Shown: positions 984 to 59,371, numbered from the stretch's first letter. The stretch is DNA of 64,000 bases from Squalus acanthias (GCA_030390025.1 CM059431.1:140928001-140992000); one strand, 5' to 3'. Numbers and translations: made by a program. The notes: generated from the letters alone by a model not told the origin.

Positions 984-1198
984 TGTCATAAATCGCAAGT
1001 AACAACTCAGGAAGTACTTCTGGGCGGCCAGCTGGGGCGCCGTCCAGGGAGTATAAATACTCAGGCATGGGCCCACCTTGGGCAGAGACAATCTGGAAAC
1101 AGGAAGCTAGTGACTGCTAACTGGACCTCCATGTTTTGTTACAAGTTGATTAAAGCCTTGCTTTATGTTCAAGTGCGTAGTGAGTCTTTATTACGTCA
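984..1198 (+). repeat. Gypsy 5' LTR
   Basis: TGTCATAAATC...TTACGTCA. TATAAA at 1052-1057 and ATTAAA at 1149-1154. Repeated at 5280-5494. Confidence 0.95.
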
Positions 1199-1298
1199 AT
1201 TTAATCAACTTGATATCGTCTCCACGCTTTGGGTGATTCGGAACAACCAGCTGCAACTCGAACCACAGAAGGGAACTAGGGCAAGAAACTGATCCATC

Positions 1299-2699
1299 AT
1301 GGAAAAACTCCTTAGACCCGCTCGTCTCGACCTGGACCCGAATGCACCTGCGGCAGCAAAGGTATGGAAGCATTGGTTTCGTACCTTTAGCAACTTTCTT
1401 GAAGAATGTGGGGCGGATGTCCCTAATAAGTTACGAATGCTTATCAACTACGTGTCTCCTCATGTGTATGATTATATTGAGGACTGTATAGTCTATGACA
1501 CTGCTATCGAAATCTTACAGCAGCTATATGTCAAGTCCCCAAATGAAATATTTGCTCGACACCTACTGGCCACAACTCGGCAGCAGCCTGGGGAATCACT
1601 CGATGAATTTCTCCAGAAACATCGCAGGCTCAGCAAGGATTGTAACCTTAAAGCAGTTACAGCTGAACAGTATCAAGAGGAACTAATCCGCGATTCCTTT
1701 ATCAATGGGATCGCGTCCCCTTTTATACGTCAGCGCCTGCTGGAAAATAAAACCCTCAATTTACGGGCTGCTTATGACCAGGCGTGTTCCTTGGACTTGG
1801 CCAAGAAAAATGCAGACACTTATCTCCCACCACGTGCACGGGCGGCGGCTATCTCCTTTAATGAGTCTTTCGGTAGGTCTCGGGCGGATGCCCCCACTGA
1901 TGTTGACTCTACTCTAACGGACGACGACCCTACCCTAGAGGCCTTCGCTGATGACGACCCCGCCCTAGCAGCATCCTGGCAATCAGGAAGAAAGTGTTTC
2001 TTTTGTGGAGGGGCGTGCCATCACAGAAAATTTTGCCCGGCTCGTAATGTGACCTGCAATCATTGCAGCAAGAAAGGACACTTTTCCAAGGTATGCCAGT
2101 CACGGGCCTTTGCTAACAAGAAAGGCCGCTCCTCTAAAGTATACCGGTCGAGAGCTCCTGTTAGCTTCACAGCTGCTATCTATGGAGCTGCTCCTCCCTC
2201 AAGAACTACTGTTAAGGCTACAGTTGCCGAAGGGAAAATTGCCCCTCCTCCCATCACGGCTGTTTTTCCCCAAAGTTTGTTCCATGCAGCCACGAAGGTT
2301 TCAGTAAATGGGCACACTCTAAGCGCGCTAATCGACTCCTGCAGCTCTGACAGCTTCATTAGTAAGCGGGCTGTCAACAGGTTAAAACTGCACATTTATC
2401 CCTCGGACAGGGAGATTGCAATGGCTCTGACGACTCTGACCACCAATTCTTCTGGCTTCTGTCTTGTCAACCTCATCCTCAACGGCCGCATGTATCTCTC
2501 CACCCAGCTCGGAGTACTCGCAAACTTATGCAGCGATGTGCTTCTGGATAGGACTTCCAGAAGCAGCACAAGAAGATCACTTTTGAGTTTGGAGGGTCAA
2601 GGCCAGAGCTTACCATTTCTAAGGTGCCTTTTTGTGCACTCTCGGCGGCCTTACTCGGTGAACCCTCCCTGTTTGCCAATCTTCCCCCCCCCGCTGTAA
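1299..2699 (+). pseudogene. gag: Gypsy gag + aspartic protease (frameshifted near 2550 and at the C9 run 2684-2692)
   Basis: Zinc knuckles CFFCGGACHHRKFC and CNHCSKKGHFSKVC. Protease motif ALIDSCS. The natural continuation DFQKQH...FANL..CKPIATKSRR lies in two shifted frames. Confidence 0.8.
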
Positions 2700-5241
2700 A
2701 CCCATAGCCACCAAATCGCGGCGCTTTAGCCAAGATGATCGAGCGGTTATTGAGGCGGAAATCTCTCGCCTTTTAGTCGACGGTATTATCGAGTCATGTT
2801 CATCTCCCTGGCAGGCTCAGGTCGTCATTGTGAGGAAGCCCTTAAAACAATTTGAAAAACGTCTGTGTATCGATTATTCGCAGACTATTAATCAATATAC
2901 CGATCTGGATGCCTACCCGCTGCCACGCATAGATGACATGGTCAACAACCTTGCCAAATACAAGGTATTCTCGACCTTCGATTTAAAAAGCGCTTACCAT
3001 CAGGTGCCACTGCAAAACTCCGACAAGAACTATACGGCCTTTGAGGCCAATGGTCGGCTTTTTCAGTTTCGCCGCCTTCCATTCGGGGTCACCAATGGGG
3101 TGGCCGTCTTCCAACGGGCCATGGATGGCCTAGTCCGGCAAGAGAACTTGACGGATACCTTTCCGTATTTAGACAATATCACTATTGCCGGCCATGATCA
3201 AAAGGAGCATGACGCCAATCTTCAGAGATTTTTTGACGTACTCCGCCGTCGCCACTTAACGTTAAACGAATCCAAATCGGTGAAGTCGGTGCCATCGGTG
3301 AACATTCTTGGCTACTGGGTGGGCAACGGCGTTATTAAACCGGACCCAGAGCGACTTTGTCCACTTCAGGAGCTCCCTCCCCCGACGAACCTCGGCTCTC
3401 TTCGTCGGGCACTTGGCATGTTTGCTTATTATGCAAAATGGATACCACACTTCTCCGATAAAATACAGCCCCTGCTCCATGCGAAGTCTTTTCCATTGGA
3501 AGCTACGGCTATTTCTGCCTTCAACCTCCTCAAACGACAGTTGGAGAAAGCCACGCTTCGCTCCATTGACGAAAATCTTCCTTTTGTGGTCGAATGCGAT
3601 GCATCGGAGGTGGCGATCTCCGTTACCTTGAATCAAGGTGGCCGACCCGTGGCATTCCTATCCAGAACCTTGCAGGGTAGCGAGCTCCATTACCCCCCCG
3701 TCGAGAAGGAGGCTACGGCCATCATCGAGGCTGTACGCCAATGGGGTCATTTTCTTGCTCGGCGTCATTTTACGCTTATAACTGACCAGCGCTCTGTGGC
3801 CTTCATGTTGGATAACCGGAGGCGCACGAAAATCAAAAATAATAAAATTCAACTCTGGAGGATGGAGCTGGCTGCCTTTGGATATACTATCTGTTGCCGA
3901 CCCGTCAAACAGAACGTGGCCCCAGATAACTTCACACGGGCATTTTGCTCCTCAATGTCAACGTCGACTCTGGCGGATTTGCATATGGACTTATGCCATC
4001 CTGGTGTGACCCGCATGTTGCACTTTGTGCGCTCCAAAAATCTACCATTTTCAACCGAGGACGTAAAGAAAACATGCTCATCCTGTAGGATTTGTGCAGA
4101 ATTGAAACCACAATTCCTTCGCCCATCAGATGGCTTACTCATACATGCAATGCAGTCTATGCAGAGGCTCAGCTTAGACTTTAAAGGGCCATTGCCTTCG
4201 TCGACAAGGAACACCTACCTACTTACGATGGTGGACGAGTATTCACGCTTTCCCTTCGCCTTCCCCTGCCCTAATATGCTTACCTCTACGGTAATTAAAT
4301 GCCTCGATCAGGTCTTTTCCCTTTGCGGGACGGCCAATTTTATCCACACTGATCGGAGTCCCTCCTTTATGTCGAGTGAACTTAAAAGTTACCTCTCCCA
4401 ACGGGGAATCGCCTCAAGTAGGACGACACCATATCACCCAATCGGTAACGGACAGGTTGAACGATACAATGCCATCATCTGGAACGCTGTCCGTCTGGCA
4501 CTAAGGTCACGCAACCTACCGGACCAGCAGTGGGAAACGGTGCTCCCCGACGTGTTACACTCTATCAGGTCTCTTCTCTCCACATCTACTAATGTCACGC
4601 CTCATGAGCGATTCTTCAAATTCCGGCGTCGCTCTACACATGGGACGTCTCTACCATCATGGTTGGTGGCTCCAGGCCCGGTGCTACTCCGGAGGTTCGT
4701 CCGGTCTGCCAAAAACGACCCTCTCGTTGACGAGGTGGAGTTAACGGAGGTAAACCCCACGTATGCGCACGTACGGTACCCTGATGGCCGGGAGACCACC
4801 GTTTCGCTCCGAGATCTGGCTCCCTGCCCAACCGGTCACACGGGCCCGAATGATGCAGGATCCCACGACGATGATATCAACACTCCGCACCCCTATGAAA
4901 ATGACGCCCCGCTTGGGACATCGGTGGATCTGCTGGCAATGCTACCGGATCAACTCAGGGAGCTGGATGCTCCCCGTAGGATGGCCACCCGAAACCAGGA
5001 CGCCGGACAATCTCCAGCCACGACTCGGGATCAGGCCAGCTCAGCACCTGTGGGGACCCGCACCCGGAGTCATGATATTCCCAGTCCTCCACAGGATGAT
5101 CAAGATGACGCGGACTCTACTGACTTACCGGTACGGGCCAAGCGACCCAGGGACCAGGATACGGTCCGGGGAGACGTGCCTTCCGGTCACAAGCAGAGAG
5201 CTAAATGTCTGCGGCTATTTCTGGTCCGCCTAGTCCATTAA
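2695..5241 (+). CDS. pol: Gypsy pol (RT, RNase H, integrase)
   Basis: LCIDYS, FDLKSAYHQ, LPFG and YLDN in RT. VECDAS, EKEA and LITD in RNase H. HHCC plus LDF, TD and VER in integrase. Confidence 0.9.
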   Translation, partial: CKPIATKSRRFSQDDRAVIEAEISRLLVDGIIESCSSPWQAQVVIVRKPLKQFEKRLCIDYSQTINQYTDLDAYPLPRIDDMVNNLAKYKVFSTFDLKSAYHQVPLQNSDKNYTAFEANGRLFQFRRLPFGVTNGVAVFQRAMDGLVRQENLTDTFPYLDNITIAGHDQKEHDANLQRFFDVLRRRHLTLNESKSVKSVPSVNILGYWVGNGVIKPDPERLCPLQELPPPTNLGSLRRALGMFAYYAKWIPHFSDKIQPLLHAKSFPLEATAISAFNLLKRQLEKATLRSIDENLPFVVECDASEVAISVTLNQGGRPVAFLSRTLQGSELHYPPVEKEATAIIEAVRQWGHFLARRHFTLITDQRSVAFMLDNRRRTKIKNNKIQLWRMELAAFGYTICCRPVKQNVAPDNFTRAFCSSMSTSTLADLHMDLCHPGVTRMLHFVRSKNLPFSTEDVKKTCSSCRICAELKPQFLRPSDGLLIHAMQSMQRLSLDFKGPLPSSTRNTYLLTMVDEYSRFPFAFPCPNMLTSTVIKCLDQVFSLCGTANFIHTDRSPSFMSSELKSYLSQRGIASSRTTPYHPIGNGQVERYNAIIWNAVRLALRSRNLPDQQWETVLPDVLHSIRSLLSTSTNVTPHERFFKFRRRSTHGTSLPSWLVAPGPVLLRRFVRSAKNDPLVDEVELTEVNPTYAHVRYPDGRETTVSLRDLAPCPTGHTGPNDAGSHDDDINTPHPYENDAPLGTSVDLLAMLPDQLRELDAPRRMATRNQDAGQSPATTRDQASSAPVGTRTRSHDIPSPPQDDQDDADSTDLPVRAKRPRDQDTVRGDVPSGHKQRAKCLRLFLVRLVH

Positions 5242-5279
5242 AGGAAGACTGGACTTCCAAACCTTTTAGGGAGGAAGAA

Positions 5280-5494
5280 TGTCATAAATCGCAAGTAACA
5301 ACTCAGGAAGTACTACTGGGAGGCCAGCTGGGGCGCCGTCCAGGGAGTATAAATACTCAGGCATGGGCCCACCTTGGGCAGAGACAATCTGGAAACAGAA
5401 AGCTCGTGACTGCTAACTAGACCTCCATGTTTTGTTACAAGTTGATTAAAGCCTTGCTTTATGTTCAAGTGCGTAGTGAGTCTTTATTACGTCA
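5280..5494 (+). repeat. Gypsy 3' LTR
   Basis: Direct repeat of 984-1198, preceded by the PPT and followed by the TSD GTACC. Confidence 0.95.
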
Positions 5495-6999
5495 GTACCG
5501 GTTGGTCACTTTGATACCTCCCCCTGCGTTTGTCGCCAAGATACAGAAGATGCTCATCGACTTCTTCTGGGACAAAAGGAAGCACTGGGTCTCTGCCGCG
5601 CTTCTGTGTCTCCCGCTTAGGGAGGGTGGTCAGGCGCTGGTGTGCCTTTGCACCCAGGCAGCAACTTTCCGTCTTCAGACGCTGCAGAGATACCTTTGCA
5701 TCGAGAATCCTCCCAGATGGTGTGCGCTGCCGATGTATTTCTTCCGCCAGATGCACGGTCTCAACTATGACATGCAGCTCCTGTTTGTGGAATTGGGCCG
5801 CACGCGAGCCTACCTGTGGGAGCTGCCTGTCTTCTACCAGAAACTGCTATGGGTCTGGAATCAAGTCGCCTCCAGGCGGAGTTCTCTCCGGTCAGGAGTG
5901 GCGGCTCTCCTTCGGGAGACGCTGCTCAGGAATCCTCACCTCCACGTCCGACGGATCGGCTGGCTGGTGGAGGGCAGGGCTGTGCCTGGCAAGGTGACCA
6001 GAGTCGGGGACCTGCTCGATGGCGGAGGAGCGGGCTGGATGGCGACAGAGGAGTTGGCGTGGTGCCTCTCGTGTGTTGACATCTGGCGCGTGACCAAAGC
6101 CATCGAGTCGCTGAAAGTGGCACTGGGCCCAGACTCCACTAGGTGTATCGAGGAGGCTCAAGCACGTGGGGCGATCCCGTCCGAACTGACCTCCGTTCGG
6201 ACGGAATTCCTCATCGGCGCGCGGCCCCGAAACCCCTCTCGGGAACCGGCGCCTCACAAATTGAGCCGTCTCGGGGAAATGCCCTCCGTGCCCTTTAGTT
6301 CTGCATGGAGGGGTTTCCTGTACGGGCTGCTCCTGCACACTTTCCACTTTGTCATCTTCGCCTGCCGTCCGGACATGCCTTGGCATGCCATCTTGCCGTC
6401 CATCAGAGGCGAAGGTCCCTAATGGAGGGCTCTCTACACGGGAGTCCTCCCCTTTTCTACTGGGGACTTGTCCTGGTTGCTGTTGCACGGAGCAGTCCCG
6501 TGCAATCAGTTTTTAAGTAGGTTCACAGACTCCCAGGCCACCTGTCTTTTTTGCTGCCTTGAGGAGTCCATGTTCCATGTGTACGTACAATGTGAGAATA
6601 TTTGAAGGGGCTGCTCCTTGCTTTTTGGTTGCACTTCAGTCCCACGCTCCTGATCTACGGTCACCCGGTGCGGAGGGGAGAGGGCTGGTCAGAGGACCTC
6701 CTCGTAGGACTGCTCCTGGGCCTGGCCAAAGTGGCCATTAACTGGTCCAGGCAGCGGGCGGTCGAGGGGGTCGTTCGGCGCAATTGCCTGCCTCTCTTCC
6801 GCAGCTATGTTCGCGCCCGGGTGGCCTTGGAGATGGAGCACGCGGTGTCCGCCGGCACACTCGAAGCCTTCCGAGACCGGTGGGCGCCGCAGGGACTGGA
6901 GTGCATCGTCTCCCCGGACAACGTTATTTTAGTTTAATGAGATAAGTTTCATTTGAAATTTTGTTAATTTAAAGTAGTTTTATGTTGACTCAAAAAGAG
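5495..6999 (+). mobile_element. Tx1-like ORF2 C-terminal part and 3' end (decayed)
   Basis: Continues the upstream frame (YRLVTLIPPP...FFWDKRKHWV). The decayed C-terminal Cys/His region near 6480-6600 contains stops. AT-rich 3' end. Confidence 0.85.
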
Positions 7000-12754: not shown

Positions 12755-15321
12755 TTGGTGTTGGGTTTTACTTCCCTAACTTGTTGGTCTGGCGGAATTC
12801 CGGGACTGGGGAAAATGACATCTGGTCACTGAGAAAGCCGAAGCATTCTGACACAGACACTGACCGGCGGCAGCATTTCCTGTTCTAAGACACTCGGACT
12901 GTGACCTCATTTCCTGTGGCCCATCGTGAAGAGCGCCACAGTCTGGAGTCGGGGGCTCCTGATGACGTAGCGAGTGCTTCAAAAGTGGACCTGGTTCGTC
13001 ACACTTCTGACACCAACAGGCAATGGGTGCAACGCTCAGCCGATTCTGTGACGTGTCACCAATTATATTCAGGAGCTCCTGCTTCTTTCACTCTTCGCAG
13101 TTTGTATATTCAGCAGTTTCATTTGACTTTTGCAGTTCAAGGATAATAAATAAATCACAAATATTTATGGCTACTGTTTTTTCGGGATCATTAAACTTGT
13201 GGACATCAACTCTGGGCATTGATTTTCTTCCCATTAATGTAACATAAGATGTATTTAATTCCGGCTGTGGTAAAGATCCCTTAACATTCTTCTAGCATTG
13301 AGTGGAACAAGAGACAGATTCCGATGTTAAGGACGGCCGTCAGCCTCTGGACGGAGCTCTGTAATTCTCCACTAAAATTCTACAACCACAAAACTCTCTG
13401 CACTGTTATACAAACACATCTATGCGATCATCGTGTTCCAACATGTCGATACGCGATGGAGAACTTCGCGTGAGTTACACCCCAACTTTTTAAGTCTTTC
13501 TTTCGACACGATTATGCAATAATGTTTTAATAACATTTAAATCTGTTACTGAATCTAAGTATTTATGAGAGACTAGGTTTCATCTACAAGAAATAAAAAC
13601 GGACACACAATCCAAATAATGGCACTGCCCAAATAATTCTGACAGTAAAGAGTCTTGAAACAATTAGAGGCTTCTTCAAAGGTGTCGTTATTTTATCAGT
13701 TACTATTCGGAAAAGAGGAAAGATGTCACTAATTCCGTGATTTGACTGAACTTTCCGCCGCTTTACTGAATTATGTCGATTGGCAGCAGCGTATTTTCGA
13801 CCCGCCCAATTTTCTTTTTCATTATAGTAAATGAAAGTGGAAATTCGGTCGGGGTGTATGACTGGCGGACAGTCCGCTCCAGCCAGATTTCCGCCCAGAC
13901 CGAAATTGAAAATGACCTTAGATACAGAATATTCAGATTCCACTAATCCCAAATGTACTGATAACTACAGGCATGCAGTAGATGGAAGGCACCGCGATAA
14001 ACATACAATCCGACTGGGCGAAAAAAAATGCATGAAAGCCAATCAGTTAAACATTAATGTAAACCAACAAAGAAATTAATATCTGCGGCGCCCATCATTC
14101 GCAGAAGATGTATAAAGATCGAGCTGACACAGCGCTGCCTGTTTATATGTGTAACCCGGGATACTGAATAGAACAGCGGAAGCAGTCAGAGACAGTCCTC
14201 TGACTTTCTTACACATCCTGCAGTGTGAAAAGTGGATTTACCCAGTTGGAGGGTCAGCTTCTCTTCGAAATCTTACAACCTGCAACACATGTACTGCAGA
14301 ACAAATTGGAAAACATTTTCAACCGAGGCACTGAAATTAGCGGGCGGATAAAATGCTAGTTAATTGGCTCGAATCCTCATCTGAAGCATTTGCACCGATA
14401 AATGCTCTCAAACCCAGGTCCCCAGTGGTGCTGGACGGAGCTCCGAATACACCGCCTTGCACTGGGGGTACCCGTTCAATGCCAGTTGGTAAAAGGGACG
14501 AGGTTATACACGACAGTGTCTGTGCACCAACACACACAGCGGATTATTCCATGTAAATATCTGAGAGTCCTGTTTACTGATCCTTGCCTGAAATGCCCTG
14601 ATTATAAATTCTTATTTCTTACACTGTGTTAGTAGGTTACAGGGTCGCTGATTCACGTTAATATCACGCAGATTCACCATGATACATTTAGTAACAGCAA
14701 GTAACAACTTTATTTAATGTTGCTGAACAGACTTCAACTATTACTCAATAATCGAGACGTCAGAATAAACAGTAAAACGAGGCAACTCCAGTAAACATTC
14801 AAAAAATGCTGAAACATCGCAACACTGTGAAGGGGACAGCGGCACCGCTCCTTATTCGCAGGAGAAGAGGTGAAGCGGCCCTTGCAACTGCAATCAGTCC
14901 AAATAACATTTTCACCAAACCTGCGAGGAAAAAGTAACTGGACCGAGAGTTGTAAACGATAAAATCTTTCCCTAAAACTGGTGACTGATCCGGTCAATAT
15001 ATGGCAGAATTGATTGCATGTCCTCGCAGGATCAGATATTAAACCCGTTGATCAACTATTGTATTCCACTATTAAATTTCACTTCATCACTGACGTTTTT
15101 CATACTTAAGGGGGATGTCCTTGTTTGGGAGGAGAAACTCGACCAAAGAACTGCGGAAACCCACAGTCCTTGTTGGCGTTAAATGCTACAAAGGGCCCCA
15201 CATATACTCGCGTACCTGTGAGGTTTTTACAAGAACAATCCTATGTAGCGGTTAGTAGAGAGAACCCCACTCTAAGCTGGAACACGAGCTAGAACGGAAT
15301 TCTAATATCCCAACCGAAGCT

Positions 15322-15977
15322 CTAGTTCAGCTTTCTTTCATGTTTAACCAATCTTAGAATCAGTGTCCAGGGAGATTTCAGCATCTTCTTCAGCTCTTCT
15401 CTGAATCTCCTCTGGGTCGCTGCATAAATACACGTGTTCGGACAGGAACTCAAATGCTTCAGCATGGCTCCGGTTTCAGTGGCGACATAGGCTGGGTTTG
15501 TGCGGTCACCTCGGTAATAATTGACATCTGTCATTCTGGTAATCAAAAAATTCACTGCAGTTGTCAGCCACAGCAATATAAAACTGCCCGATATAGCGAA
15601 GAGCAAAATGATGGATTTCCTTCGGCTCTCCATCTCTGGATCGCTCTGTTTCTCACTGCTCTGACCCCGGAGTCCCCTGCGGGCTCTGCTGGCCATTAAT
15701 ATACGTTTGACGGTCAAACAATTAAACAAGGCCATTAAGGTAAACGGAAGCCAAACGAGCCATATGATGTGAAACCAGAGATACGCTTCACCTGGAGGGG
15801 AGGAAAAAAAAGCTACACTTGACCGACAGCCCCACTGCACCTTGTTAATTATTTGCTGAGATTCATCTGCAAACAAAACGACAATGCCCTTTAAAAAGAT
15901 TAGAACCGTGAACGTTGTTATAACCGCGGCCGCAGTTCTCTCGGTGCAATACTTTACTTTAAACTTCTGGCAGCAGA
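15322..15977 (-). pseudogene. GPR139/GPR142-like class A GPCR, exon 2 3' part (TM4-TM7), cut off by the ERV
   Basis: CCQKFKVKYCTERTAAAVI...DPEMESRRKSIILLFAISGSF...SSCPNTCIYAATQRRFREEL. The frame is open up to the TAG. Confidence 0.9.
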
Positions 15978-16493
15978 TGATGTAAGCTCCCAAAGTGCGG
16001 ACCCAGTGATATACAAGGTCGACGCTACTGGCTTGTTGGAAGAAAGACTGACCAAGTAATTGAAGTCACAACGGTTTATTACAGGCCTGGGGAGAACCTC
16101 TCATGTCGCTTACATGAGTACATCTCCACCGAGCTAATGAAAACACACATATTTATATCCAATCAGGTTTAAAAGTTACACACAATGCTAGGTCTAAAAA
16201 CACATTACTCGTTTTACAAATATTTCTGTCTTGCCTTTACAGAGATCCAATTAGGTTTAAAAGTTACTTGGTTAGCAAACATTTCTGTCTCGCCTTATGG
16301 GGATCTCGTTATCCGAGGGTGGCTGTAAAAGTTACATACAATGCTATCTGTAAATCTCGTTGAAGGAGGTAGACTCCGAAAGCTTGTAAGGTGTTGTGTG
16401 ACTTGAAACAAATCTCGTTAAAGGCCTGGCTTTCTGCAAATGAGTCATGCCCGAATTGCCCTGGTTATATCCAATTTTTAATATCTTACTTCA
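15978..16493 (-). repeat. ERV 3' LTR
   Basis: No difference from 23172-23687 seen by eye. On the - strand: ATTGG + TATAAA (16152-16157) and AATAAA (16075-16080). Confidence 0.95.
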
Positions 16494-16506
16494 ATTCCCC
16501 CCTTTT
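16494..16506 (-). other. ERV polypurine tract
   Basis: AAAAGGGGGGAAT immediately before the 3' LTR. Confidence 0.9.
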
Positions 16507-17300
16507 GACCTATTGGACAACTGTTCCAATACAGGTCAACATGTATTCCTATTGCCTGGTGTCTGCCTGAGCGTGCACTCTCTGGCCTTCTACCAGTCTA
16601 GGTTATACATGGGTATGACATAAACCAATTTATAAGCCGGTTTCACCCCACGCGGTATATGTGGACTTATTATTTTCTTGTCTTGGTTCTATGTTGCCAT
16701 CCCCGGGGCCCAAGAGCCCTGCATCAATGGTTTGGGCTTCTGGTTCGAGCTCGTCCTCCATTCCCTCGGTGGGTGCGTGACGTGTCCTTTCGAGACTGTC
16801 ATCACTCACCAATCCTGTTTCTGCCACTCCCGTCTTACGGTTGGCCGGCCTGGTTATTAATTACCATGTCCAATTCATCCCTTGTAATTTTAGGGCTATA
16901 GATCGGGTCTTACACCATCATGGCTTTACCTAATCTTTGAGCAGCAAGAATACACAGTATATTGTAATAACAATCACGAGGAATATCATTATGCTTTGCA
17001 CCACTGAGGCGCCCAACGTCCCCGACCAGATACTTGATTATCTTCCTTTTTGTCAGCCGTCCCTTCTTCCGTCGTTCTTCTAATTTGTCCTGTGGAAATA
17101 CAAGGCTGGTCGTCACCAGCAGTTAGTTATTCCATTCTTACTACTTTGCCAGTCTCCCAGATCTATTGAAACATACAGACCACGAAGAATGTTACTATCA
17201 TAATGCAACAGGATCATATTAACGCGAATACAAGGATGTCCTGTCCCTTTGGACCCTATGCAAATAATCCTTGCTTTCCTTGTACAATATGATTTCTGGG

Positions 17301-20300
17301 TTATTCATCAGCTTCTTTGTATAATTTTAATTGTGTCCAGTGTTTCCATCTTCCCTTTCCAGTGCCGTGCAGGTCTATGCATGCACAAGTGTCGCTGGTC
17401 ATTAATACCAAATAGGGTCCTTCCCACCGGGGCCGTAACCCAGGTTTTATTGGAATTATTCTAGACATTACCTGACTTCCCACCCCAGGTATGACTTTCT
17501 TTTGTTCCTCGGTATCCCTCTCCAGATCCTTGATTATCTGCTGGTCTCTAGCCTCCTGTCTCAGCCCGTGCAGTTCCGCACATAATTGCTTTATGAACCT
17601 TCTGATTCTGTCCTTTAAAGGTCCCACATCTTCCCCTCCGGTCACTACTCCTTCGGGAAGCGCCATTGCCCGTCCCGTCATTAATTCAAAAGGGGTCAGT
17701 CCGGTGGTGCTATTTGGTGTGGCCCTTAGTCTCATTAGGATTGTGGGTAACAGTTCCGCCCATCCCTGCCCCGTCTCCACAATGGCCTTTGTGAGAGATC
17801 GTTTTAAGGTCCGATTCATTCGTTCCACCATTCCTGAACTTTCGGGATGGTAAGGTATATGAAATTTCTGCTTTACGCCCAACAGGGCGCAAGCCTCTTT
17901 CATTACCTTTCCGGTAAAGTGTGTTCCATTATCTGAATCTATTTGTAATGGGACTCCCCACCGGGGTATTATTTCTTCTGCCAAGATCCGGGCCACTGTA
18001 CTGGCGGTACAGTTTCGGGTGGCAAAAGCTTCCACCCACCTTGTGAATTGGTCAATTATTACCAGACAGTAGGTTTTTCCTTTGCTTTTGGTTAATGGTC
18101 CTGTAAAGTCTATTTGTAGTTTCTCCCAGGGTCCCTTGGGTCTTGGCTGTCTACCCCATTTTACCTTTACTGGTTTTCCGGTGTTACATTGCGCACAAAT
18201 GTGGCAATCCTTACAATACTTCCTTATACTGCTTGATAGTCCGGGCCACCACCAGCATTGGCCTATGTTATTTATCATTCGGCTGGCCCCTGTATGGGCT
18301 TGTCCGTGATACAACCTCATTAGTTCCTGTTGGATACACTCCGGTGCACAGACCCGTCCCTCCTTCCTCCAGAACTTATCTCTGGATAGCATTACTCCCT
18401 TCTTTTCCCAAATGTTCAGCTCAGGTTCTGGTATGCCTTGATGTAACTTAACAATATTATACTCAAGTGGTATTAATGGGACTGGGGCTCCCCCTATCGG
18501 TGTTACATTGCCACAGGGCGCCTCCGTCATAACCTTGGCGGCCAGGTCTGCCGCTCTGTTACCTTGTTCTTGTGGAGTTTTTCCTTTGGTGTGCGCTTTA
18601 ACCTTTATTACTGCTAACTCCGTTGGTCCGCGCGCGGCATTCACCAAGGACTTTACTACGTCCAGGTGTTGGATGGGGGCTCCCCCAGAGGTGATGTACC
18701 CCCTCCTACTCCATGCGGCCATATAATCATGTACTATTCCGAAGGCGTAGCGGCTGTCGGTATATACATTAACCCTTTTTCCCATAGCCAGTTTCAGGGC
18801 TTCCGTTAAGGCTGTTAGTTCTGCGACCTGGGCAGATTTATCCCCTGGGAGAGTTCCGGCTTGTAACACCATCCCTTCCCCATTTACCACCGCCCAGCCT
18901 ATCCTCGGCTTTCCCTGTACATATTTTCGGGATCCATCTACATATAACTCCAAGTCCGCTTCGGCCAAGGGTATTTCTTTTATTTTGTCTAGGTCATTTT
19001 CTGGCTCTTCCTCATTCATGCATTGGTGGTCCTCTCCTTCCATGATCATCATGGAGGCTGGGTTCTGCCCCATATCCCTGACTATCTGTATTGACTTGTC
19101 TTTGGGTAATAGTACCGCCTCCCAGGCTGCTCGTCGAGCATTTGAGACAGACTTCAGTCGTCCCGTATTAAGTAATTCTACCAGGGTGTGCTGGGTGTGT
19201 AGTACAATATCTCCGGTCATTATAATCGGTTCACTGACCTGTACTGACCATCTGGCACAGTCTATAGCGGCCACGCAGCGGGGCATACCTGCCACGATGG
19301 GGGATCGTCTAGTGGAATAGTAGGCCACCGATCTCATGTTTCCTCCGTGCTCCTGGGCTACTACGGCGCTATAGTGTCCATCATGATTGTGACAGAATAT
19401 GTGATAGGGTCTCTCTTGATCAGGTAATCCTAACGCGGGGGCGGCGGTCAGGGCTTGTTTAAGTTTGGTAAATGCTTCTTCCTGAGTGGATGTCCACCCG
19501 ATGGGTTCTCCTGCTGCCCTACCCCCCTTTGTTAATTCATACAGAGGCGCGGCCATGTGTGAGAAGCCTTCTATAAAGTTCCGGCTAAAGTTAAAGAGAC
19601 CGAGTACCTGTCGTACTCCTCTCACGTTTATGGGCCTTGGCATTTGGCTGATTGCCTCCTTCCTTTCCTCTGGCATAGCCCTTTTCCCCATACTGACCCT
19701 ATACCCGAGGTATGTGACTTCCAATTTTCCTACCTGGGCTTTGGCTGGGTTTGCTTTAAAACCCGCCTCCCGTAGGGTTGAAAAGACCTTTACCAGGGCC
19801 CCCTTATGTCCCACTTTCGTTTCTGACGCTATTAGGAGGTCATCCACGTATTGTAAGAGGGTACTATTTTCACCCTCTAAGTCTAGGTCTTCAAGAGCTC
19901 TGGCCATGTGGCGGTGAAAAATGGCTGGACTGTTATGTAATCCTTGTGGGACCCGTGTCCATGTATACTGTTTGCCGCCTATTGTAAAGGCGAACTTTTC
20001 CTGTGATTCCTCATGCAGGGGAATGGACCAGAACCCGTTTGCGATGTCTAACACGGTGAATATTTTGTGTTCTGGTTTTAAACCGTTAAAGATAGTAGCT
20101 GGGCTTGCTACAATTGGATATTCCTTTGGGGTCACTTTATTTAAGGCTGTGTAATCGATTGTAAGTCGATATGACGCATCAGGTTTCTTTACGGGCCATA
20201 CTGGAGAGTTAGTGCCGGACACTGTTTCTCGCAGAATTCCCTGTTTCACGAGTTCCAATACTATACTCCGTACGGCTGTCTGGGCCTCCACTTTTAGGGG

Positions 20301-20864
20301 ATATTGTTTATGGGGTCGGTGGGTTGGCCCGGGGACTCTGACTGGGTTCATCTTAACCAGTCCGCAGTCCTGCTTGTGTTTGGCCCATAGTTCGGGGAAT
20401 CGGTGGCAAATTGCCCCCCACCCTCCCTTTTCGTCCCATTTGGGGTCTATTATTTGGATAGCGCTGATGGCACATGCTGTCTTGGATCCCTTTGAGTTAT
20501 GTCTCCCTTCCTTGTGGTTATCGGGCCATAGCAACTTATCCTGTTTGGGGTCTATTAAAACTCCCACTTCCCTTAGTATGTCTATACCCAGGATGGTTCC
20601 CTCAGTATTCTCACAGATCCAGAAACATGTAGGTATAATGAATTTTCCCAATTCTAGTAATACTGTCTCACTTTTCCATGCTTTAATTTTTACTCCCCCT
20701 ATCCCAGATATAAAAATATTTTCCTTGGTTCGCGGCAAGGGTACGTTTGTTAGAGATATTGCTGCCCCGGTGTCTATGAGCATTCTGCACTGTCGGCCCC
20801 CTACCAGTGCCTCAATAAACATTCTAGGGTCTCCCTTTACCGGGTCTCCGAGGGCCGCTACCTT
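17301..20864 (-). CDS. pol: ERV pol (PR-RT-tether-RNase H-IN), uninterrupted
   Basis: LIDTGA. SPVWPVKK, LDIANGF, PQG and YVDD. Degenerate RH tether, then YVDGS, AEL, YTDS and GNRAAD. HHCC, then IDF, DSD and VER. In frame with gag after a single TGA. Confidence 0.95.
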   Translation of the reverse strand, partial: KVAALGDPVKGDPRMFIEALVGGRQCRMLIDTGAAISLTNVPLPRTKENIFISGIGGVKIKAWKSETVLLELGKFIIPTCFWICENTEGTILGIDILREVGVLIDPKQDKLLWPDNHKEGRHNSKGSKTACAISAIQIIDPKWDEKGGWGAICHRFPELWAKHKQDCGLVKMNPVRVPGPTHRPHKQYPLKVEAQTAVRSIVLELVKQGILRETVSGTNSPVWPVKKPDASYRLTIDYTALNKVTPKEYPIVASPATIFNGLKPEHKIFTVLDIANGFWSIPLHEESQEKFAFTIGGKQYTWTRVPQGLHNSPAIFHRHMARALEDLDLEGENSTLLQYVDDLLIASETKVGHKGALVKVFSTLREAGFKANPAKAQVGKLEVTYLGYRVSMGKRAMPEERKEAISQMPRPINVRGVRQVLGLFNFSRNFIEGFSHMAAPLYELTKGGRAAGEPIGWTSTQEEAFTKLKQALTAAPALGLPDQERPYHIFCHNHDGHYSAVVAQEHGGNMRSVAYYSTRRSPIVAGMPRCVAAIDCARWSVQVSEPIIMTGDIVLHTQHTLVELLNTGRLKSVSNARRAAWEAVLLPKDKSIQIVRDMGQNPASMMIMEGEDHQCMNEEEPENDLDKIKEIPLAEADLELYVDGSRKYVQGKPRIGWAVVNGEGMVLQAGTLPGDKSAQVAELTALTEALKLAMGKRVNVYTDSRYAFGIVHDYMAAWSRRGYITSGGAPIQHLDVVKSLVNAARGPTELAVIKVKAHTKGKTPQEQGNRAADLAAKVMTEAPCGNVTPIGGAPVPLIPLEYNIVKLHQGIPEPELNIWEKKGVMLSRDKFWRKEGRVCAPECIQQELMRLYHGQAHTGASRMINNIGQCWWWPGLSSSIRKYCKDCHICAQCNTGKPVKVKWGRQPRPKGPWEKLQIDFTGPLTKSKGKTYCLVIIDQFTRWVEAFATRNCTASTVARILAEEIIPRWGVPLQIDSDNGTHFTGKVMKEACALLGVKQKFHIPYHPESSGMVERMNRTLKRSLTKAIVETGQGWAELLPTILMRLRATPNSTTGLTPFELMTGRAMALPEGVVTGGEDVGPLKDRIRRFIKQLCAELHGLRQEARDQQIIKDLERDTEEQKKVIPGVGSQVMSRIIPIKPGLRPRWEGPYLVLMTSDTCACIDLHGTGKGRWKHWTQLKLYKEADE

Positions 20865-22411
20865 TCAGGCGTTGCCTTTTTTTATCTGTTTGACCAGTTT
20901 TTCCATTTTCCTTGTCAGCTCCACTATGTCTTCCTCGTCGGAGGTGTCTGAGGAATCATCTCTCTTATACTTCCTACTCTTTCTCCTCTTCCTTTCTTCT
21001 CTTTCTCTGTCATCCTCCCAGTCTTGCATTCCCTTCCTGATCAGTTTCGCCATGCTTTCCTCGTTATTCTCTGACCTTCCAATACTTGACCCCGGTTTTC
21101 CTCCCTGTCTAGGTCCCTGACCTTCCCTTCCTCCTCCTTTATTCCAACATTGTTGTTTCCTATGCCCTGGTTTTCCACAATTATGACAGGAAGCCTTTTG
21201 CTGAGATGTCTGATTATCCCCTTTGTTCTGTTGCCTCGGGCAATCCCTTTTCATGTGGCCCTCCTGTCCGCAACCGAAGCATGCCGCCACACTTAATGCA
21301 TCCTCATTGTCGCTATCCGTCCTTAGGGCAGCTATTTTAGGTTTGGCTTGTTCTTGGACCTGATTATCTACTTCGCACGCCCACTGTATTAAGTCCTCCC
21401 AATTATGGTGGACCACTAGCCCCATTTTTATTGCATTCTGGTGCATTGGACTTAGTCCCTGTTTAAATGTTTGCAGAAAACAAGCGTTGTTTTTGTTTAA
21501 GGGGCCTGGGATCCCACAGTTACCCTCAAAGGCGGACCACTTTCGTTTTCCATAATCGATAGCGCTTTCTCCCTTTTTTTGTGTGATTCCGCTTATAGCT
21601 GCCCAATTTACGGGGGCCTGTCCCATTGCTGCTTCCACAGCGGCCTTGAATTGGTCGAACTCAGTGTTTAATTGTTGGATTGTCTGTCCTGTATTTGTGC
21701 CCCACTGGCCATTTCCGTGGTTGCCCTGCACTAATCTCCACTGTTCCTCGGGACATTTAGCTCGTACCAATTGATCGATATCTATACTATGTAGGGCATG
21801 GTTTATGCGTACTTCGCGCAGTTTGTGCCAGAATGTCTGATTATTCTGGCGGTGTTTTAAGGCTGGTAATTCATTGAGGAGAATCACCCGATCCTGCAGG
21901 CTTAACGGTGTGTAGGTCAACGTTGTGGTGGCCGGCCTGCCCGGTACTGCCGGGACGGCCGGATTCCCCCCTGCCGCCGGAATTTCCGGAACCGCGGGGA
22001 TTGCTGGCCTATATTGCAGTGTCACTGGTGCCATCGGAACAGGCTCCGGGGCTGCCGACTGGTGTCCTGTATATGGGGGAGGACAGCCAGTCGGCCCCCC
22101 CTGGGCAGCTCCGGGTATAACCTTTCCTGGGAGTTACCCGGTTTTGGGTTGGCTGCAGCTGCTGGATATGTTTTAAGGGCTCCGCGCTGGAGCATACGTT
22201 CCCGATCGTATCGTGCCGCTACGATAATGCACGCTTTCTCCAATTTATTTTTGGTTTGTTTCCTCCACCAGTCCCTTTGTGTGTCTGGTTTATCGTCCTG
22301 GTTCCACCCTGCCTTTCTCATTTTCTCAATTAATTTTTTATTCTTGTCGTAAACATATCGTGTTACAGACTCTGGGTCTCCCCAGGGTTCCTTATCCTCT
22401 TTGCTAGCCAT
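20865..22411 (-). CDS. gag: ERV gag (about 515 aa), split by a 1-nt frameshift in a G7 run at 22095-22101
   Basis: ORFs 22022-22411 and 20865-22034 join as LYPELPRGGPTGCPPPY...MAPV if one G is added. MHR-like ITQKKGESAIDY. Two CCHC knuckles. Confidence 0.85.
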
Positions 22412-22440
22412 AGTTTATTTATTTATTTATTTATTTATTT

Positions 22441-22965
22441 TTCGGCCAGAAGGACTTGTCCTTCACCCAGTGTTAAAACAACCTGTTTAACTACTTCTTA
22501 AGAGCCGCACCTCGTGGGCCTACCGGGTTTCTAAACCCTTGTTTGTTTATTTTAAAAACTCCCCGTTTTAACTACTACCTAAGTTTACTTTTCGGCCAGA
22601 AGGACTCGCCCTCCACCGTGTTAAAACTCCCCGTTTTAACTACTACTTAAGTTTACTTTTCGGCCAGAAGGACTCGTCCTCCACCGTGTTAAAACTCCCC
22701 GTTTTAACTCCTACTTAAGTTTATTTTTCGGCCAGAAGGACTCGTCCTCCACCGTGTTAAAACTCCCCGTTTTAACTCCTACTTAAGTTTACTTTTCGGC
22801 CAGAAGGACTCGTCCTCCACCGTGTTAAAACTCCCCGTTTTAACTACTACCTAAGTTTACTTTTCGGCCAGAAGGACTCGTCCTCCACCGTGTTAAAACT
22901 CCCCGTTTTAACTACTACTTAAGAGCCGCACCTCGTGGGCCTATCAGTTTTCTAAACCCTTGTTT
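22441..22965 (-). repeat. 68-bp tandem repeat array in the ERV 5' leader
   Basis: CGGCCAGAAGG recurs at 22593, 22661, 22729, 22797 and 22865 (68-bp period), plus a diverged copy at 22443. Confidence 0.95.
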
Positions 22966-23101
22966 TCCGGTACCGCAGTCCGGCAGTGTTAACCGCCTTC
23001 AATTAAAGGTGTCTTTCTTTTTATAGTTCTTTTGTACGTCAATCTTACTTAACGTCTCGCCAGCGATTAACCTCTAATTTTACAGGTGGTAATTTAAACG
23101 T

Positions 23102-23110
23102 ACTCACCCG
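23102..23110 (-). promoter_or_regulatory. ERV major splice donor
   Basis: CGG|GTGAGT about 45 nt downstream of the PBS. Confidence 0.7.
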
Positions 23111-23151
23111 TCTTAGGTTATCGCTGTCCGAGAGTTTTGTTCAGATCGCGC

Positions 23152-23169
23152 ATCCCATCCTCGTCGCCA
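23152..23169 (-). other. Primer-binding site, tRNA-Ser(GCT)
   Basis: TGGCGACGAGGATGGGAT, 2 nt after the 5' LTR. It is complementary to the vertebrate tRNA-Ser(GCT) 3' end AUCCCAUCCUCGUCGCCA (recalled sequence). Confidence 0.9.
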
Positions 23170-23171
23170 AT

Positions 23172-23687
23172 TGATGTAAGCTCCCAAAGTGCGGACCCAG
23201 TGATATACAAGGTCGACGCTACTGGCTTGTTGGAAGAAAGACTGACCAAGTAATTGAAGTCACAACGGTTTATTACAGGCCTGGGGAGAACCTCTCATGT
23301 CGCTTACATGAGTACATCTCCACCGAGCTAATGAAAACACACATATTTATATCCAATCAGGTTTAAAAGTTACACACAATGCTAGGTCTAAAAACACATT
23401 ACTCGTTTTACAAATATTTCTGTCTTGCCTTTACAGAGATCCAATTAGGTTTAAAAGTTACTTGGTTAGCAAACATTTCTGTCTCGCCTTATGGGGATCT
23501 CGTTATCCGAGGGTGGCTGTAAAAGTTACATACAATGCTATCTGTAAATCTCGTTGAAGGAGGTAGACTCCGAAAGCTTGTAAGGTGTTGTGTGACTTGA
23601 AACAAATCTCGTTAAAGGCCTGGCTTTCTGCAAATGAGTCATGCCCGAATTGCCCTGGTTATATCCAATTTTTAATATCTTACTTCA
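23172..23687 (-). repeat. ERV 5' LTR
   Basis: Direct repeat of 15978-16493, followed on the - strand by the PBS. Confidence 0.95.
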
Positions 23688-23956
23688 GCAGATAACTACA
23701 AATCGATCAAATGTGAAGGAGACGGTGAACCAAACAGACAAATCGAAGGTGACATGATTCATGTATAGATTGAACTTACACCCCGGAGTCTGGGACAGGA
23801 ATGAATATGGAAAATGATAACTGAAAACATAATACACCATTACATTGAAGATCATGACCAGTAGATCTGCTGTTGCCATGGTCATCATGTAGACAGAGAT
23901 ACACTTGGAAAGGCCGCAGTTTCCTCTGGAGAGAATCACAATTGTCACCAGGTTCG
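23688..23956 (-). pseudogene. GPR139/GPR142-like GPCR, exon 2 5' part (TM1 end to TM3)
   Basis: Acceptor ctctctttcctacag|CG. ANLVTIVILSRGNCGLSKCIS...ATADLL...SVWFTVSFTFDRFVVIC, then the LTR supplies an immediate TGA. Confidence 0.9.
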
Positions 23957-24365
23957 CTGTAGGAAAGAGAGAGGAGAGAAATAATGTTCCAGTATCTGAT
24001 TGAAATATATATGGAGATACCTGTGGAGAGCATTTTACTCCATTCAGTGTGATTATTAACACGGAGCAGTGTGAGAACAGGATTAGTATTGGAGCCATTA
24101 CCAGGGAAACCCACCCACACATTTAATGAGCTGCTGCAGCGCTCACTCTGCACGGGGGGACAAGACGGTCCGGAAATCCGCTAAAATCCTTGTGTTGGAA
24201 ATTCAAAAACATTGTAACATCAGTATTACGGGGAACGTGGAAAGTGCGGACACGCGGTTCACTGTGTCATGCTGACATCTGTAAAACTGTTACCTTATCC
24301 AACATGCGATATGAACAGGGACACAGTCAACACCGATTAACAACAAGCAGGTTACAATGGCTCAC

Positions 24366-24435
24366 CGGGGACACCGAAAGCTGCGAGAATCGGGTAGTAA
24401 ATCTCTTTTATCAGCAGTATATCTGGTCGCCCCAT
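24366..24435 (-). pseudogene. GPR139/GPR142-like GPCR, coding exon 1
   Basis: MGRPDILLIKEIYYPILAAFGVP followed by G|GTGAGC. The phase-1 join to exon 2 gives a 990-nt (329 aa) ORF once the ERV is removed. Confidence 0.9.
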
Positions 24436-24956
24436 TTTCAGTGAGAATGGATGAATTCTGTAGGTGATGAAAGATTCTGACTGTCGCACGGCTGAGTCAA
24501 TAGAGGGGAACCTATATTTATCCACACATCAATCCGCCAGGGAGTTAATCAAATTAACGCATAATTGTCATTAGTTAAAGTCATTTAACAAATAGACTGA
24601 AGTAAGTTGTTTTTTTTGACTGTTAATTCAGTTTAAGAGAAATTAATGAAATTGTTATTGTAAAGTTTCAAAAATACACACAATACAAACATTCTTTACA
24701 AATGGGAACTGGAATCACCCAATAATGGAGCTGACCCTATTCCAGCAGAACTGGTGGAAGCAGCGATATGGCAGTCATCGGCCTGACCCAGCCCTTCACT
24801 GACTCCTAGTGCTCCAACTCCTCTAGAACAGGCGCTGAAACAAATCCTGTAATATATGAAACAGTCCTGCAGCATTAGAGATGACCTTGTTCCTCCGGTA
24901 ATAGTAGCTCACAAAACTTACAACAGACGTGGACCTGCTCCTTCACTACTAGTCAT

Positions 24957-37975: not shown

Positions 37976-40900
37976 GACATAAGAACATAAGATCATAAGA
38001 ACATAAGAAATAGGAGCAGGAGTAGGCCAATCGGCCCCTCGAGCCTGCTCCGCCATTCAATGAGATCATGGCTGATCTGATCCAACCTCAACTCTAAAGA
38101 ACACAAGAAGCAGGAGCAGGACCCGGCCACTCAGCCCCTGGGCCCGCTCCGCCACCCACAGGGCCTTGACCGATCCGAACTCAAACTCATGTCCAACTTC
38201 CAGCCCGCTCCCCGTAACGCCTGATTCCCTTTACTTCTAGGAAACGGTCTATTTCTGTTTTAAATTTATTTAATGAAGTAGCTTCCACAGCTTCCTGGGG
38301 TAGCAAATTCCACAGACCCACTACCCTCTGAGTGAAAAAGTTTCTCCTTATCTCAGTTTTGAAAGAGCAGCCCCTTATTCTAAGATTATGTCCCCTAGTT
38401 CTAGTTTCACCCATCATTGGGAACATCCTCACCGCGTCCACCCGATCAAGCCCCTTCACAATCTTATATGTTTCAATAAGATCGCCTCTCATTCTTCTGA
38501 ACTCCAATGAGTAGAGTCCCAATCTACTCAACCTCTCCTCGTAGGTCCACCCCCTCATCCCCGGAATTAACCGAGTGAACCTTCTTTGTACTGCCTCGAG
38601 AGCAAGTATGTATTTTCTTAATTATGGACACCAAAACTGTATGCAGTACTCCAGGTGCGGTCTCACCAATACCCTATACAAATGCAGCAATACCTCGCTG
38701 TTTTTATATTCTATCCCCCTAGCAATAAAAGCCAACATTCCATTGGCTTTCTTGATCACCTGCTGCACCTGCATACTAACTTTTTGATTTTCTTGCACCA
38801 AGACCCCCAGATCCCTTTGTACTGCAGTACTTTCCAGTTTCTCGCCATTAACATAATAACTTGCTCTCTGATTTTTCCTGCCAAAGTGCATAACCTCACA
38901 TTTTCCAATATTGTATTGCATCTGTCAAATCTCTGCCCACTCACCCAGCCTGTCGATATCCCCTTGTAGGTTTTTTATGTCCTCCTCACTCTCTACTTTC
39001 CCTCCCATCTTTGTATCATCTGCAAACTTTGATATGTTACACTCGGTCCCCTCCTCCAAATCGTTAATATAGATTGTAAAGAGTTGGGGACCCAGCACCG
39101 ACCCCTGCGGAACACCACTGGCTACTGATTGCCAGTCCGAGAATGAACCATTTATCCCAACTCTCTGCTTCCTGTTAGATAACCAATCCTCCACCCATGC
39201 CAGAATATTACCCCCAATCCAGTGATTTTTTATCTTGAGTAATAATCTTTTATGTGGCACCTTGTCGAATACCTTCTGGAAGTCTAAATACACTACATCC
39301 ACTGGTTCCCCTTTATCCACCCTGTACGTTATGTCCTCAAAGAACTCGAGCAAATTTGTCAGACATGACTTCCCCTTCATAAAGCCATGCTGACTTTGTC
39401 CTATTAAATTATGTTTATCTAAATGTTCCGTTACTGTCTCCTTAATAATAGACTCCAAAATTTTACCCACCACAGATGTTAGGCTAACTGGTCTATAATT
39501 TCCAGCCTTCTGCCTACAACCCTTTTTAAATAAGGGTGTTACATTAGCAGTTTTCCAATCTGCCGGGACCTTTGCTGAGTTCAGGCAGTTTTGGAAAATT
39601 ATTACCAAAGCATCCACAATTCCTACTGCCACTTCCCTCAAGACCCTAGGATGTAAGCCATCAGGTCCAGGGGATTTATCTGCCTTGAGTCCCATTATTT
39701 TACTGAGTACCAATTCCTTAGTGATTTTAATCGTATTTAGCTCCTCCCCCACTAGAGCCCCCTGTTTGTCCAGTCTTGGGATATTCTTAGTGTCCTCTAC
39801 CGTAAAGACTGAAACAAAATATTTGTTCAGCATTTTTGCCATCTCCATGCTTCCCACCATTAATTTCCCGGTCTCATTCTCTAAGGGACCTACGTTTGCC
39901 TTAACCACCCTTTTTCTTTTTATATAACTATAGAAACTCTTGCTTTCTGTTTTTATATTTTTTGCTAATTTATTTTCATAGTCTATTTTCCCTTTCTTAA
40001 TCAATCCTTTAGATACTTTTTGTTGTCTTTTGAAGACTTCCCAATCTTCTTTCCTCCCACTAACTTTGGCTACCTTATATGTCCTTGTTTTTAGTTGGAT
40101 ACTTTCTTTAATTTCTTTACTTAGCCATGGATGGCTGTCATTTCTTTTACACCCTTTTTTCCTCAGTGGAATATATTTATTTTGAAAGTTGTAAAATAAC
40201 TCCTTGAATGAACACCACTGCTCATGTACCGTCTTACCCTTTAATCTATTTTCCCAGTCCACTTTAATCAATTCTGCTCTCATGCCATCATAGTCTCCTT
40301 TATTCAAGCTCAGTATGCTTGCTTGAGAACCAACCTTCTCACCCTCTAATTGGATATGGAATTCAACCATGTTATGGTCACTCATTCCAAGGGGATCCTT
40401 AACTAGGACATTATTAATTAATCCAGACTCATTACACAGTACCAGGTCCAAGGTTGCTTGCCCCCTTGTAGGATCAGTTACATACTGCTCAAGAAATCCA
40501 TCCTTAAGACACTCAATAAATTCTTCCTCAAGGCTGCTCTGCCCAATTTGATTTGTCCAGTTAATATGATAGTTAAAATCCCCCATAATTATAGCTGTTC
40601 CCTTATTACATGCCCCAACTATTTCCTGATTAATACTTCTTCCAACAGAGTTGCAACTATTAGGAGGCCTATATACTACGCCCACCAGTGTTTTTTTCCC
40701 CTTATTATTCCTAATCTCTACCCAAACTGTTTCATTATCCTGATCTTTTGAACCAATATAATTTATCTGTATTACTGTGATTCCTTCCTTTATTAACATA
40801 GCAACCCCCCCCCCCCCTCCCCTTCCTTCCTGCCTGTCCTTCCTGATTGTAAAATACCCTGGCATATTTAATTCCCAGACGTTGTCACCCTGCAGCCATG

Positions 40901-58810: not shown

Positions 58811-58819
58811 CCTACTTCA

Positions 58820-58928
58820 TAGGGGACCGAACGAGGCCTCGTCCAGAGGGGACCGACCGAGGCCTCCTCCAGAGGGGACCGACCGAAACCTCATCCTGAG
58901 GTGACTGACCGAGATCTCCCTCAGAGGG
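58820..58928. repeat. 26-bp tandem repeat, about 4 copies
   Basis: GGGGACCGACCGAGGCCTCCTCCAGA and variants. Confidence 0.8.
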
Positions 58929-59371
58929 GAAGAAGGTGGGATGTACTTTAGAGAAACGTTTATTTAATATATTAAAACAATGAATACAGTTATTGAAAAA
59001 GTCGAGGAGACCAGGCGTGAGCTGAAGTAAGCGGTGGAGTTTTATTAACACAACACAGGGACAACAACAATAACTTGCATTTATATAGCGTCTTTAATGT
59101 AATGAAACGACACAAGGCAATTAGCAGACAAAATTCGACACTGAGCCACATAAAGAGATTTGAGGAGAGATGGCCCAAAGCTCGGTGAAAATGGTAGGTT
59201 TTTAAAAGCGCTTAAAGGAGGCGGAGAGAGAGGTAGAGCTGCGAAAAGGTTTAGGGAAAGAATACCAGAGTTTAGGGCCTTGGCAGCTGAAGTCATGGCA
59301 CCAATGTGGAGCAAAGTAAATCCAGGATGTGCAACAGGTCAGAGGAGTGGAGAGATCTCGGAGGGTCGTTG

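Follow-up and report, generated by a model that had tools for sequence, protein, structure and literature searches.

A shark receptor gene and a retroviral provirus were found to share the minus strand between positions 15322 and 24435 of the window, by which we mean the whole 64,000-nt stretch of DNA that was analysed. The provirus spans 7,710 bp, comprises two LTRs, a primer-binding site, a leader, gag, pro-pol, an env remnant, and a polypurine tract, and divides the second exon of the receptor gene. From the 5′ end of the receptor gene to its 3′ end, the features are as follows:

24366..24435, minus strand: host exon 1, with its ATG at 24435, matching the N-termini of shark paralogues.
23957..24365, minus strand: host intron (GT-AG), by the splice choice that aligns with the paralogues.
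23688..23956, minus strand: 5′ part of host exon 2, encoding predicted TM1-TM3 and the DRF motif (Pfam 7tm_1 positions 2-88); its final five bases form the first of the two target-duplication copies.
23172..23687, minus strand: 5′ LTR of 516 bp with TATA-like and AATAAA motifs, opening with TGA in the receptor frame.
23152..23169, minus strand: primer-binding site, agreeing at 18 of 18 bases with a primer against tRNA-Ser(GCT) from the literature (PMC9072684, available text).
22555..22923, minus strand: tandem array of a 68-bp unit (5.4 copies, 97% matches) within the 760-nt leader.
22025..22411, minus strand: 5′ piece of gag from its ATG (22411), matching the N-terminus of Heterodontus P0035 (E 8e-12).
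20865..22133, minus strand: main piece of gag with two CCHC knuckles (Pfam), ending at a TGA in the pol frame.
17301..20864, minus strand: pro-pol, 1,187 open codons for protease, RT, tether, RNase H, and integrase (Pfam), with catalytic motifs present.
16507..17307, minus strand: env remnant, with hydrophobic stretches in broken frames and an internal deletion junction near 17028.
16495..16506, minus strand: polypurine tract.
15978..16493, minus strand: 3′ LTR, of the same sequence as the 5′ LTR.
15973..15977, no strand: second copy of the 5-bp target-site duplication, from comparison of the bases outside the LTRs.
15322..15972, minus strand: 3′ part of host exon 2, encoding predicted TM4-TM7 and the tail and open to the stop (Pfam 7tm_1 positions 93-260).

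When the window was compared with itself, the LTR pair (15978-16493 and 23172-23687) was found to be identical at 516 of 516 bases, with the exact match ending at both borders. On the minus strand the LTRs begin and end with TG..CA (TGA..TCA), and the same five bases are present at 15973-15977 and 23688-23692. These termini and the target duplication, together with the primer-binding site, the polypurine tract, and the protease-RT-tether-RNase H-integrase order, identify the element as a retroviral provirus. A gypsy identity was ruled out by Pfam, by the RT tree described below, and by the best PDB matches of Pol, which were to retroviral RT/RNase H (p80) at 1e-116, with Ty3 reaching only 1e-56. 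The gag and pol genes share one frame with a TGA between them, and the gag frame shifts near 22100 in the assembled copy. Between the pol stop and the 3′ LTR are approximately 800 bases in which the longest open frame is 76 codons; signal-peptide-like and membrane-anchor-like hydrophobic stretches were detected here, and stops interrupt their frames. This region was named an env remnant on the basis of its position, its hydropathy, and loose contig ends read by eye, and Pfam and BLAST comparison with the viral records L001 and L002 returned no credible match. The provirus copy as assembled is defective in that env is gutted and gag carries the frame change, two features that were missing from the first description of the locus. 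Two further observations were made on the noncoding and 3′ regions of the element. The leader at 22434-22923 holds, besides the 5.4 near-identical copies of the 68-bp unit, one diverged copy directly 5′ of the gag ATG. In addition, an acidic, Gly/Pro-rich open stretch of 76 codons (about 16630-16860, minus strand) is located 3′ of the env anchor remnant; its comparison with the 3′ ORF of SnRV gave no match, and contigs of sequencing runs X5 and X7 hold 13 extra bases within it.

The receptor gene was examined after removal of the provirus together with one of the two duplication copies, which restores a two-exon ORF of 329 aa (exon 2 from 23956). Longer splice variants of 339-356 aa were dropped, with only the 329-aa form aligning with the paralogues. 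The restored receptor is identical at 258 of 328 positions to its best relative, P0123 of Heptranchias perlo, and the alignment is free of gaps at the junction. At conserved columns the receptor deviates in 6 of 128 cases, compared with a median of 8 across 120 homologues, and thus shows no visible decay apart from the insertion. The provirus and receptor are both on the minus strand, i.e., the insertion is in the sense orientation. Read in the receptor frame, the 5′ LTR opens with a TGA four codons past the DRF motif, so that 113 aa of the receptor are left. A poly(A) signal is positioned 414 bases into the LTR. Since the sense LTR provides both an immediate stop and a poly(A) signal, we infer that host transcripts would yield a three-helix fragment at most; they would end at the poly(A) signal of the 5′ LTR or give rise to a non-functional three-helix peptide. 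These results bear out the core of the first-pass annotation, which had described (i) a sense insertion four codons after the DRF motif; (ii) a 5-bp target duplication and LTRs without differences, the latter now by exact alignment; (iii) excision that gives a 329-aa, two-exon seven-transmembrane ORF with no other lesion; and (iv) an immediate TGA added by the 5′ LTR. Its claim that the insertion knocks out this receptor copy likewise stands, as the insertion is genuinely retroviral and places a stop at residue 113.

Within the 64,000-nt window, neither a second receptor copy nor a solo LTR of the provirus family was found. Other repeats were noted in the window. A full-length gypsy-type LTR element at 984-5494 (plus strand) has 215-bp repeats that are 97.7% alike, a 5-bp target duplication, and ORFs of 468 and 859 codons with protease, RT, RNase H, and integrase; it is followed by a 333-codon frame (5421-6422) with no Pfam match, which by eye is similar to the tail of a LINE ORF2. 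LINE fragments upstream of the receptor occupy 38925-41156 (minus strand) and much of 7700-47000, with one frame of 743 codons carrying endonuclease and RT domains. A Penelope-like element at 62103-64000 has a frame of 495 codons that matches RT and GIY-YIG weakly, and an inverted repeat of 547 bp (98.5% alike). An array of a 26-bp unit (4.7 copies) is located at 58808-58930, which places it 34 kb 5′ of the receptor ATG; a search of the 2.5 kb adjoining the receptor promoter found no such array.

Phylogenetic analysis of the RT was performed with a quick tree of 63 rows and a careful tree of 32 rows, chosen for spread from about 125 Pol sequences; seven sequences were dropped for short RT coverage, and L002 was restored from another ORF. 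In these trees, the element clustered with Mustelus, Heterodontus, and unnamed proteins (97/92), and these fell within a 14-row group that includes L001 (98/97), separate from 15 gamma/epsilon-type rows among which is avian reticuloendotheliosis virus (100/99). Placement in class I (gamma/epsilon), with the shark group held together with those rows, was rejected (p-AU 0.002, for a group named after the first RT tree was seen). Class I ERVs generate a 4-bp target duplication, and the 5-bp duplication of the element departs from this. L001 is 10,688 nt, equal to the published length of SnRV (PMC12193657, available text). The Gag of the element was found to match that of L001 (33% over 133 aa, E 2e-12). 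A homologue search with Gag over proteins of 232-739 aa was negative at E<=1e-5. A search for an accessory 3′ ORF such as that of SnRV gave no credible match (best E 0.32). By these comparisons the element is likely on the SnRV side and not in class I, in a tree whose references exclude named ERV-L, ERV-S, foamy, and loki sequences and in which the grouping with L001 rests on one branch. A literature search, to which subscription papers were mostly inaccessible, found no published description of the provirus.

The relationship of the receptor to human GPR139 and to other shark genes was also investigated. A search with the 3′ half of the receptor recovered 1,085 relatives at E<=1e-10 among 1,275 candidates. 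Among the best 120 of these 1,085, the 119 that were named are all from cartilaginous fish, and clustering at 90% identity gave about 24 clusters in Heptranchias, 29 in Pristiophorus, and 30 in Heterodontus (per-species counts by eye). The top hits point to a shark host, probably a squalomorph. Human GPR139 (PDB 7VUG and 9M42) is the best solved-structure match of the receptor family and is similar to the shark receptor in being a class A seven-transmembrane protein with a DRY-type motif; however, the closest full-length paralogue, P0123, matches human GPR139 at only 50 bits (E 2e-12), and the shark genes make up a large expansion of their own, whose members are named in databases by best hit. 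GPR139 is described as highly conserved among vertebrates (PMC12208981, available text); judged by the 50 bits of P0123, the shark receptor does not have the conservation expected of a GPR139 orthologue. It does have the properties of the shark family annotated as 'probable GPR139', with members of about 325-335 aa and 74-79% identity to the best eight shark paralogues. By sequence, then, the receptor is one of many close shark paralogues that are only distantly like human GPR139, and is not the conserved GPR139 itself, which corrects the label 'GPR139-like' given in the first-pass annotation. The same multiplicity was apparent in sequencing runs X5 and X1, where many receptor contigs were found that are 95-99% alike. 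With many close paralogues left, the loss of this copy is probably minor; the null would be tolerated for that reason and would represent an ordinary birth-and-death event. The proposed case of retroviral gene loss is therefore retained for this copy but is probably of little consequence in so large a paralogue family. No published account of the shark GPR139-like expansion was found by the literature search, again with most subscription papers outside its reach.

Sequencing runs were next used as a source of further copies of the provirus family. Twenty runs from 8 studies contain part of 15000-24600 (five organism codes, two rows unlabelled); 17 of the 20 hold at least half of the words of this stretch, with a maximum of 0.77, and the element makes up 0.80 of it. 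Contigs of four of the 20 runs (three of organism A and one of organism B) were compared over 14000-22400, which includes one junction of the two. Near-identical family copies were found in all four, with 1-7 differences per contig of 1-4 kb. A 5,027-nt contig of run X7 spans gag into the LTR with only about 70 additional bases, so the short env is a family trait that is probably older than the insertion. Loose contig ends were observed near 17028 and 17043 in runs X1 and X12, and 56 added bases are present there in X7, which hints at several length classes in the family, some of them longer in env. Separately, X1 and X12 have contigs that pass over the integrase region at 17760-18261 or break away from the window within it, which suggests internally deleted or diverged subfamilies. 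Depth in X5 was 21-67 within the element compared with 0-3.7 in the flank beyond the gene, and LTR depth was about 1.5-1.8 times that of the interior in X5 and X1. Depth does not measure copy number, and these values are a hint of many copies and few solo LTRs. In each of the four runs, the contigs that account for the bulk or the whole of the depth at the gag frame change disagree with the window; the break is therefore a base-calling error or else confined to this copy. The first-pass annotation had assigned the insertion to a still-active family; continuing activity is plausible at the level of the family but not for the copy present in this assembly.

The age of the insertion was estimated with the rate assumed for dating shark ERVs, 2.2e-10 per site per year (PMC4422223), and a rate of 7e-10 per generation from an epaulette-shark pedigree (PMC10587355), both as given in the available text of these papers. 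With zero differences in 1,032 LTR bases, the 95% upper bound is about 13 My at the former rate, and up to about 4 million generations (95%) at the latter. LTR identity is a weak clock in sharks, and identical LTRs are not to be equated with a very recent event. Of the term 'very recent' in the first-pass annotation, 'young for a shark' is justified from the sequence, while the identical LTRs allow for these much longer times.

Two readings of the insertion's history deserve serious weight. The stronger, for which we would put the chance slightly short of even, is that the insertion occurred within the last few thousand generations, is segregating, stems from an active family, and removed a real receptor function. 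The identical LTRs, the open pol, and the intact receptor frame are consistent with this history, although the weakness of the LTR clock in sharks lessens the force of the first. Also in its favour, one X5 contig exits at the 3′ junction, joining the 3′ host half to sequence in which the next 30 letters match the host 5′ half at 29, and no host-to-LTR contig across the junction was found among the pieces listed for the four runs over 14000-22400. The X5 contig shows that the uninterrupted target sequence exists as predicted; given its mismatch, the many closely similar receptor contigs in X5 and X1, and the 11 listed host places at which the whole depth of X1 departs from the window, it may derive from a paralogue rather than an empty allele. 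Counter to a recent insertion, near-identical copies of the element occur under at least two organism labels. The other reading, which is tentative though by no means negligible, is that the insertion is several million years old and fixed or nearly so, its LTRs having been left undiverged by slow mutation, gene conversion, or polishing. Comparison of the element interior with the X7 contig gave 7 differences in 3,979 positions (0.18%), and if all seven differences are assumed to postdate the insertion, the probability of identical LTRs is still 0.16; in addition, three of the seven listed pol differences are at first or second codon positions, and gag carries the frame change. However, at least part of this divergence predates integration, because both LTRs share differences from the contig majority (e.g., at 16123), and the receptor shows no decay. 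That the locus is an assembly artefact, with a repeat stitched into the gene or between paralogues, is most improbable: receptor family and element each exist in many copies and a spanning read is absent among the listed pieces, but the perfect target duplication of 5 bp, the TG..CA ends, and the precisely restored, gap-free frame are marks of integrase that a mis-join is unlikely to produce.

The suggestion that the 3′ LTR could drive a transcript of the TM4-TM7 half did not hold up. A functional half-receptor produced in this way, whether exapted or dominant-negative, is judged unlikely from the sequence, and we give it very little credence: the LTR has a TATA-like box and the frame is open for 247 codons from U5 into the 3′ half of the receptor, but this frame offers no ATG before residue 193, a position late in predicted TM5, so that the product would be at most 137 aa; four upstream ATGs follow the TATA-like box in the LTR and two more are out of frame in the host part; and the poly(A) signal is only 77 nt past the TATA-like box.

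Overall, we consider it likely that an env-deleted, LTR-identical provirus, itself likely of the SnRV side, stops one shark paralogue at residue 113 and was probably copied within the germ line rather than acquired by an infection that used its own envelope. The insertion, the stop, the open pol, the broken env, and the gag frame change are seen directly in this assembly. Other individuals also carry the deleted form with its stops, and env would therefore have decayed before this copy integrated. The copy could then have arisen by intracellular retrotransposition, with gag-TGA-pol readthrough and tRNA-Ser priming, or by packaging by an env-bearing relative. Alternatively, an env-bearing relative may have reinfected the germ line, with env deleted afterwards; the loose ends near 17028/17043 and the longer forms in X1 and X12 are compatible with this order of events. 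Beyond the germ-line copying of a defective provirus, it is conceivable, though rather unlikely in our judgement, that an SnRV-side retrovirus is still colonising the shark germ line, that env-deleted forms retrotranspose beside env-bearing relatives, and that the insertion is a segregating null allele. If true, this would be an ongoing retroviral invasion in cartilaginous fish, a group with no such case in the 2023 pan-vertebrate survey as far as its available text extends (PMC10435555), observed while it reshapes a large receptor family that is itself unstudied; the dated shark ERVs in the available text of PMC4422223 are tens of millions of years old. Gene-truncating ERV insertions are already well known, and the value of the present case is in the element itself: the provirus family, with its identical LTRs, its many copies in different individuals, and its varying env, may document how an infectious virus turns into a retrotransposon in a lineage that evolves slowly. 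The insertion would also be a ready population marker, if polymorphic.

The element was compared with known systems, for which the cited papers are quoted from their available text. SnRV and the SnRV-like ERVs (clade Huo, PMC6001957; CmiERV lineage I, PMC4422223) are likely on the same RT side, and SnRV-like ERVs are known in the elephant shark (PMC4422223, PMC4977317, PMC6001957). SnRV, as represented by L001, also resembles the shark element in the capsid-end/nucleocapsid portion of Gag (E 2e-12) and in having gag and pol in one frame with a stop between; it differs in that this stop is TAG rather than TGA, its RT is only about 40% identical, its env exceeds 1,000 codons where the shark element has a remnant, and its 3′ ORF shows no similarity to the shark sequence. 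The CmiERVs have LTRs that diverge by 2.4-3.3% and are dated to 54-75 My (PMC4422223), unlike the LTRs of the shark element, which show no divergence. XtERV-S, a class III element of Xenopus tropicalis, shares with the shark element a serine primer site, a gag-pol TGA, a 5-bp duplication, and identical LTRs; however, its primer is tRNA-Ser(AGA/TGA) rather than tRNA-Ser(GCT), its ends are TGT..ACA rather than TGA..TCA, its ERV-L-type Gag is without a distinguishable nucleocapsid whereas the shark Gag has two CCHC knuckles, and its env is intact (PMC8278194). Invading ERVs (ERVi) as defined by Wang and Han in 2023 need intact genes and shown polymorphism; the shark copy is similar to these in its identical LTRs but differs from them in its env remnant and gag frame change, which fall short of intact genes, and the ERVi hosts in the legend of Fig. 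2 of that survey comprise 37 orders with no cartilaginous fish, 13 cartilaginous genomes having been screened (PMC10435555). The mouse provides the precedent for env loss and intracellular spread in IAP, which is like the shark element in its lost env and inferred intracellular amplification; IAP is of class II (PMC6466679). The mouse ERV alleles, whose mobility has been proven by experiment, strike single-copy genes and in many cases have phenotypes, in contrast to the shark paralogue, yet these alleles likewise include sense insertions that truncate host genes, some of them exonic (e.g., MERV-L in Dock7) (PMC6466679).
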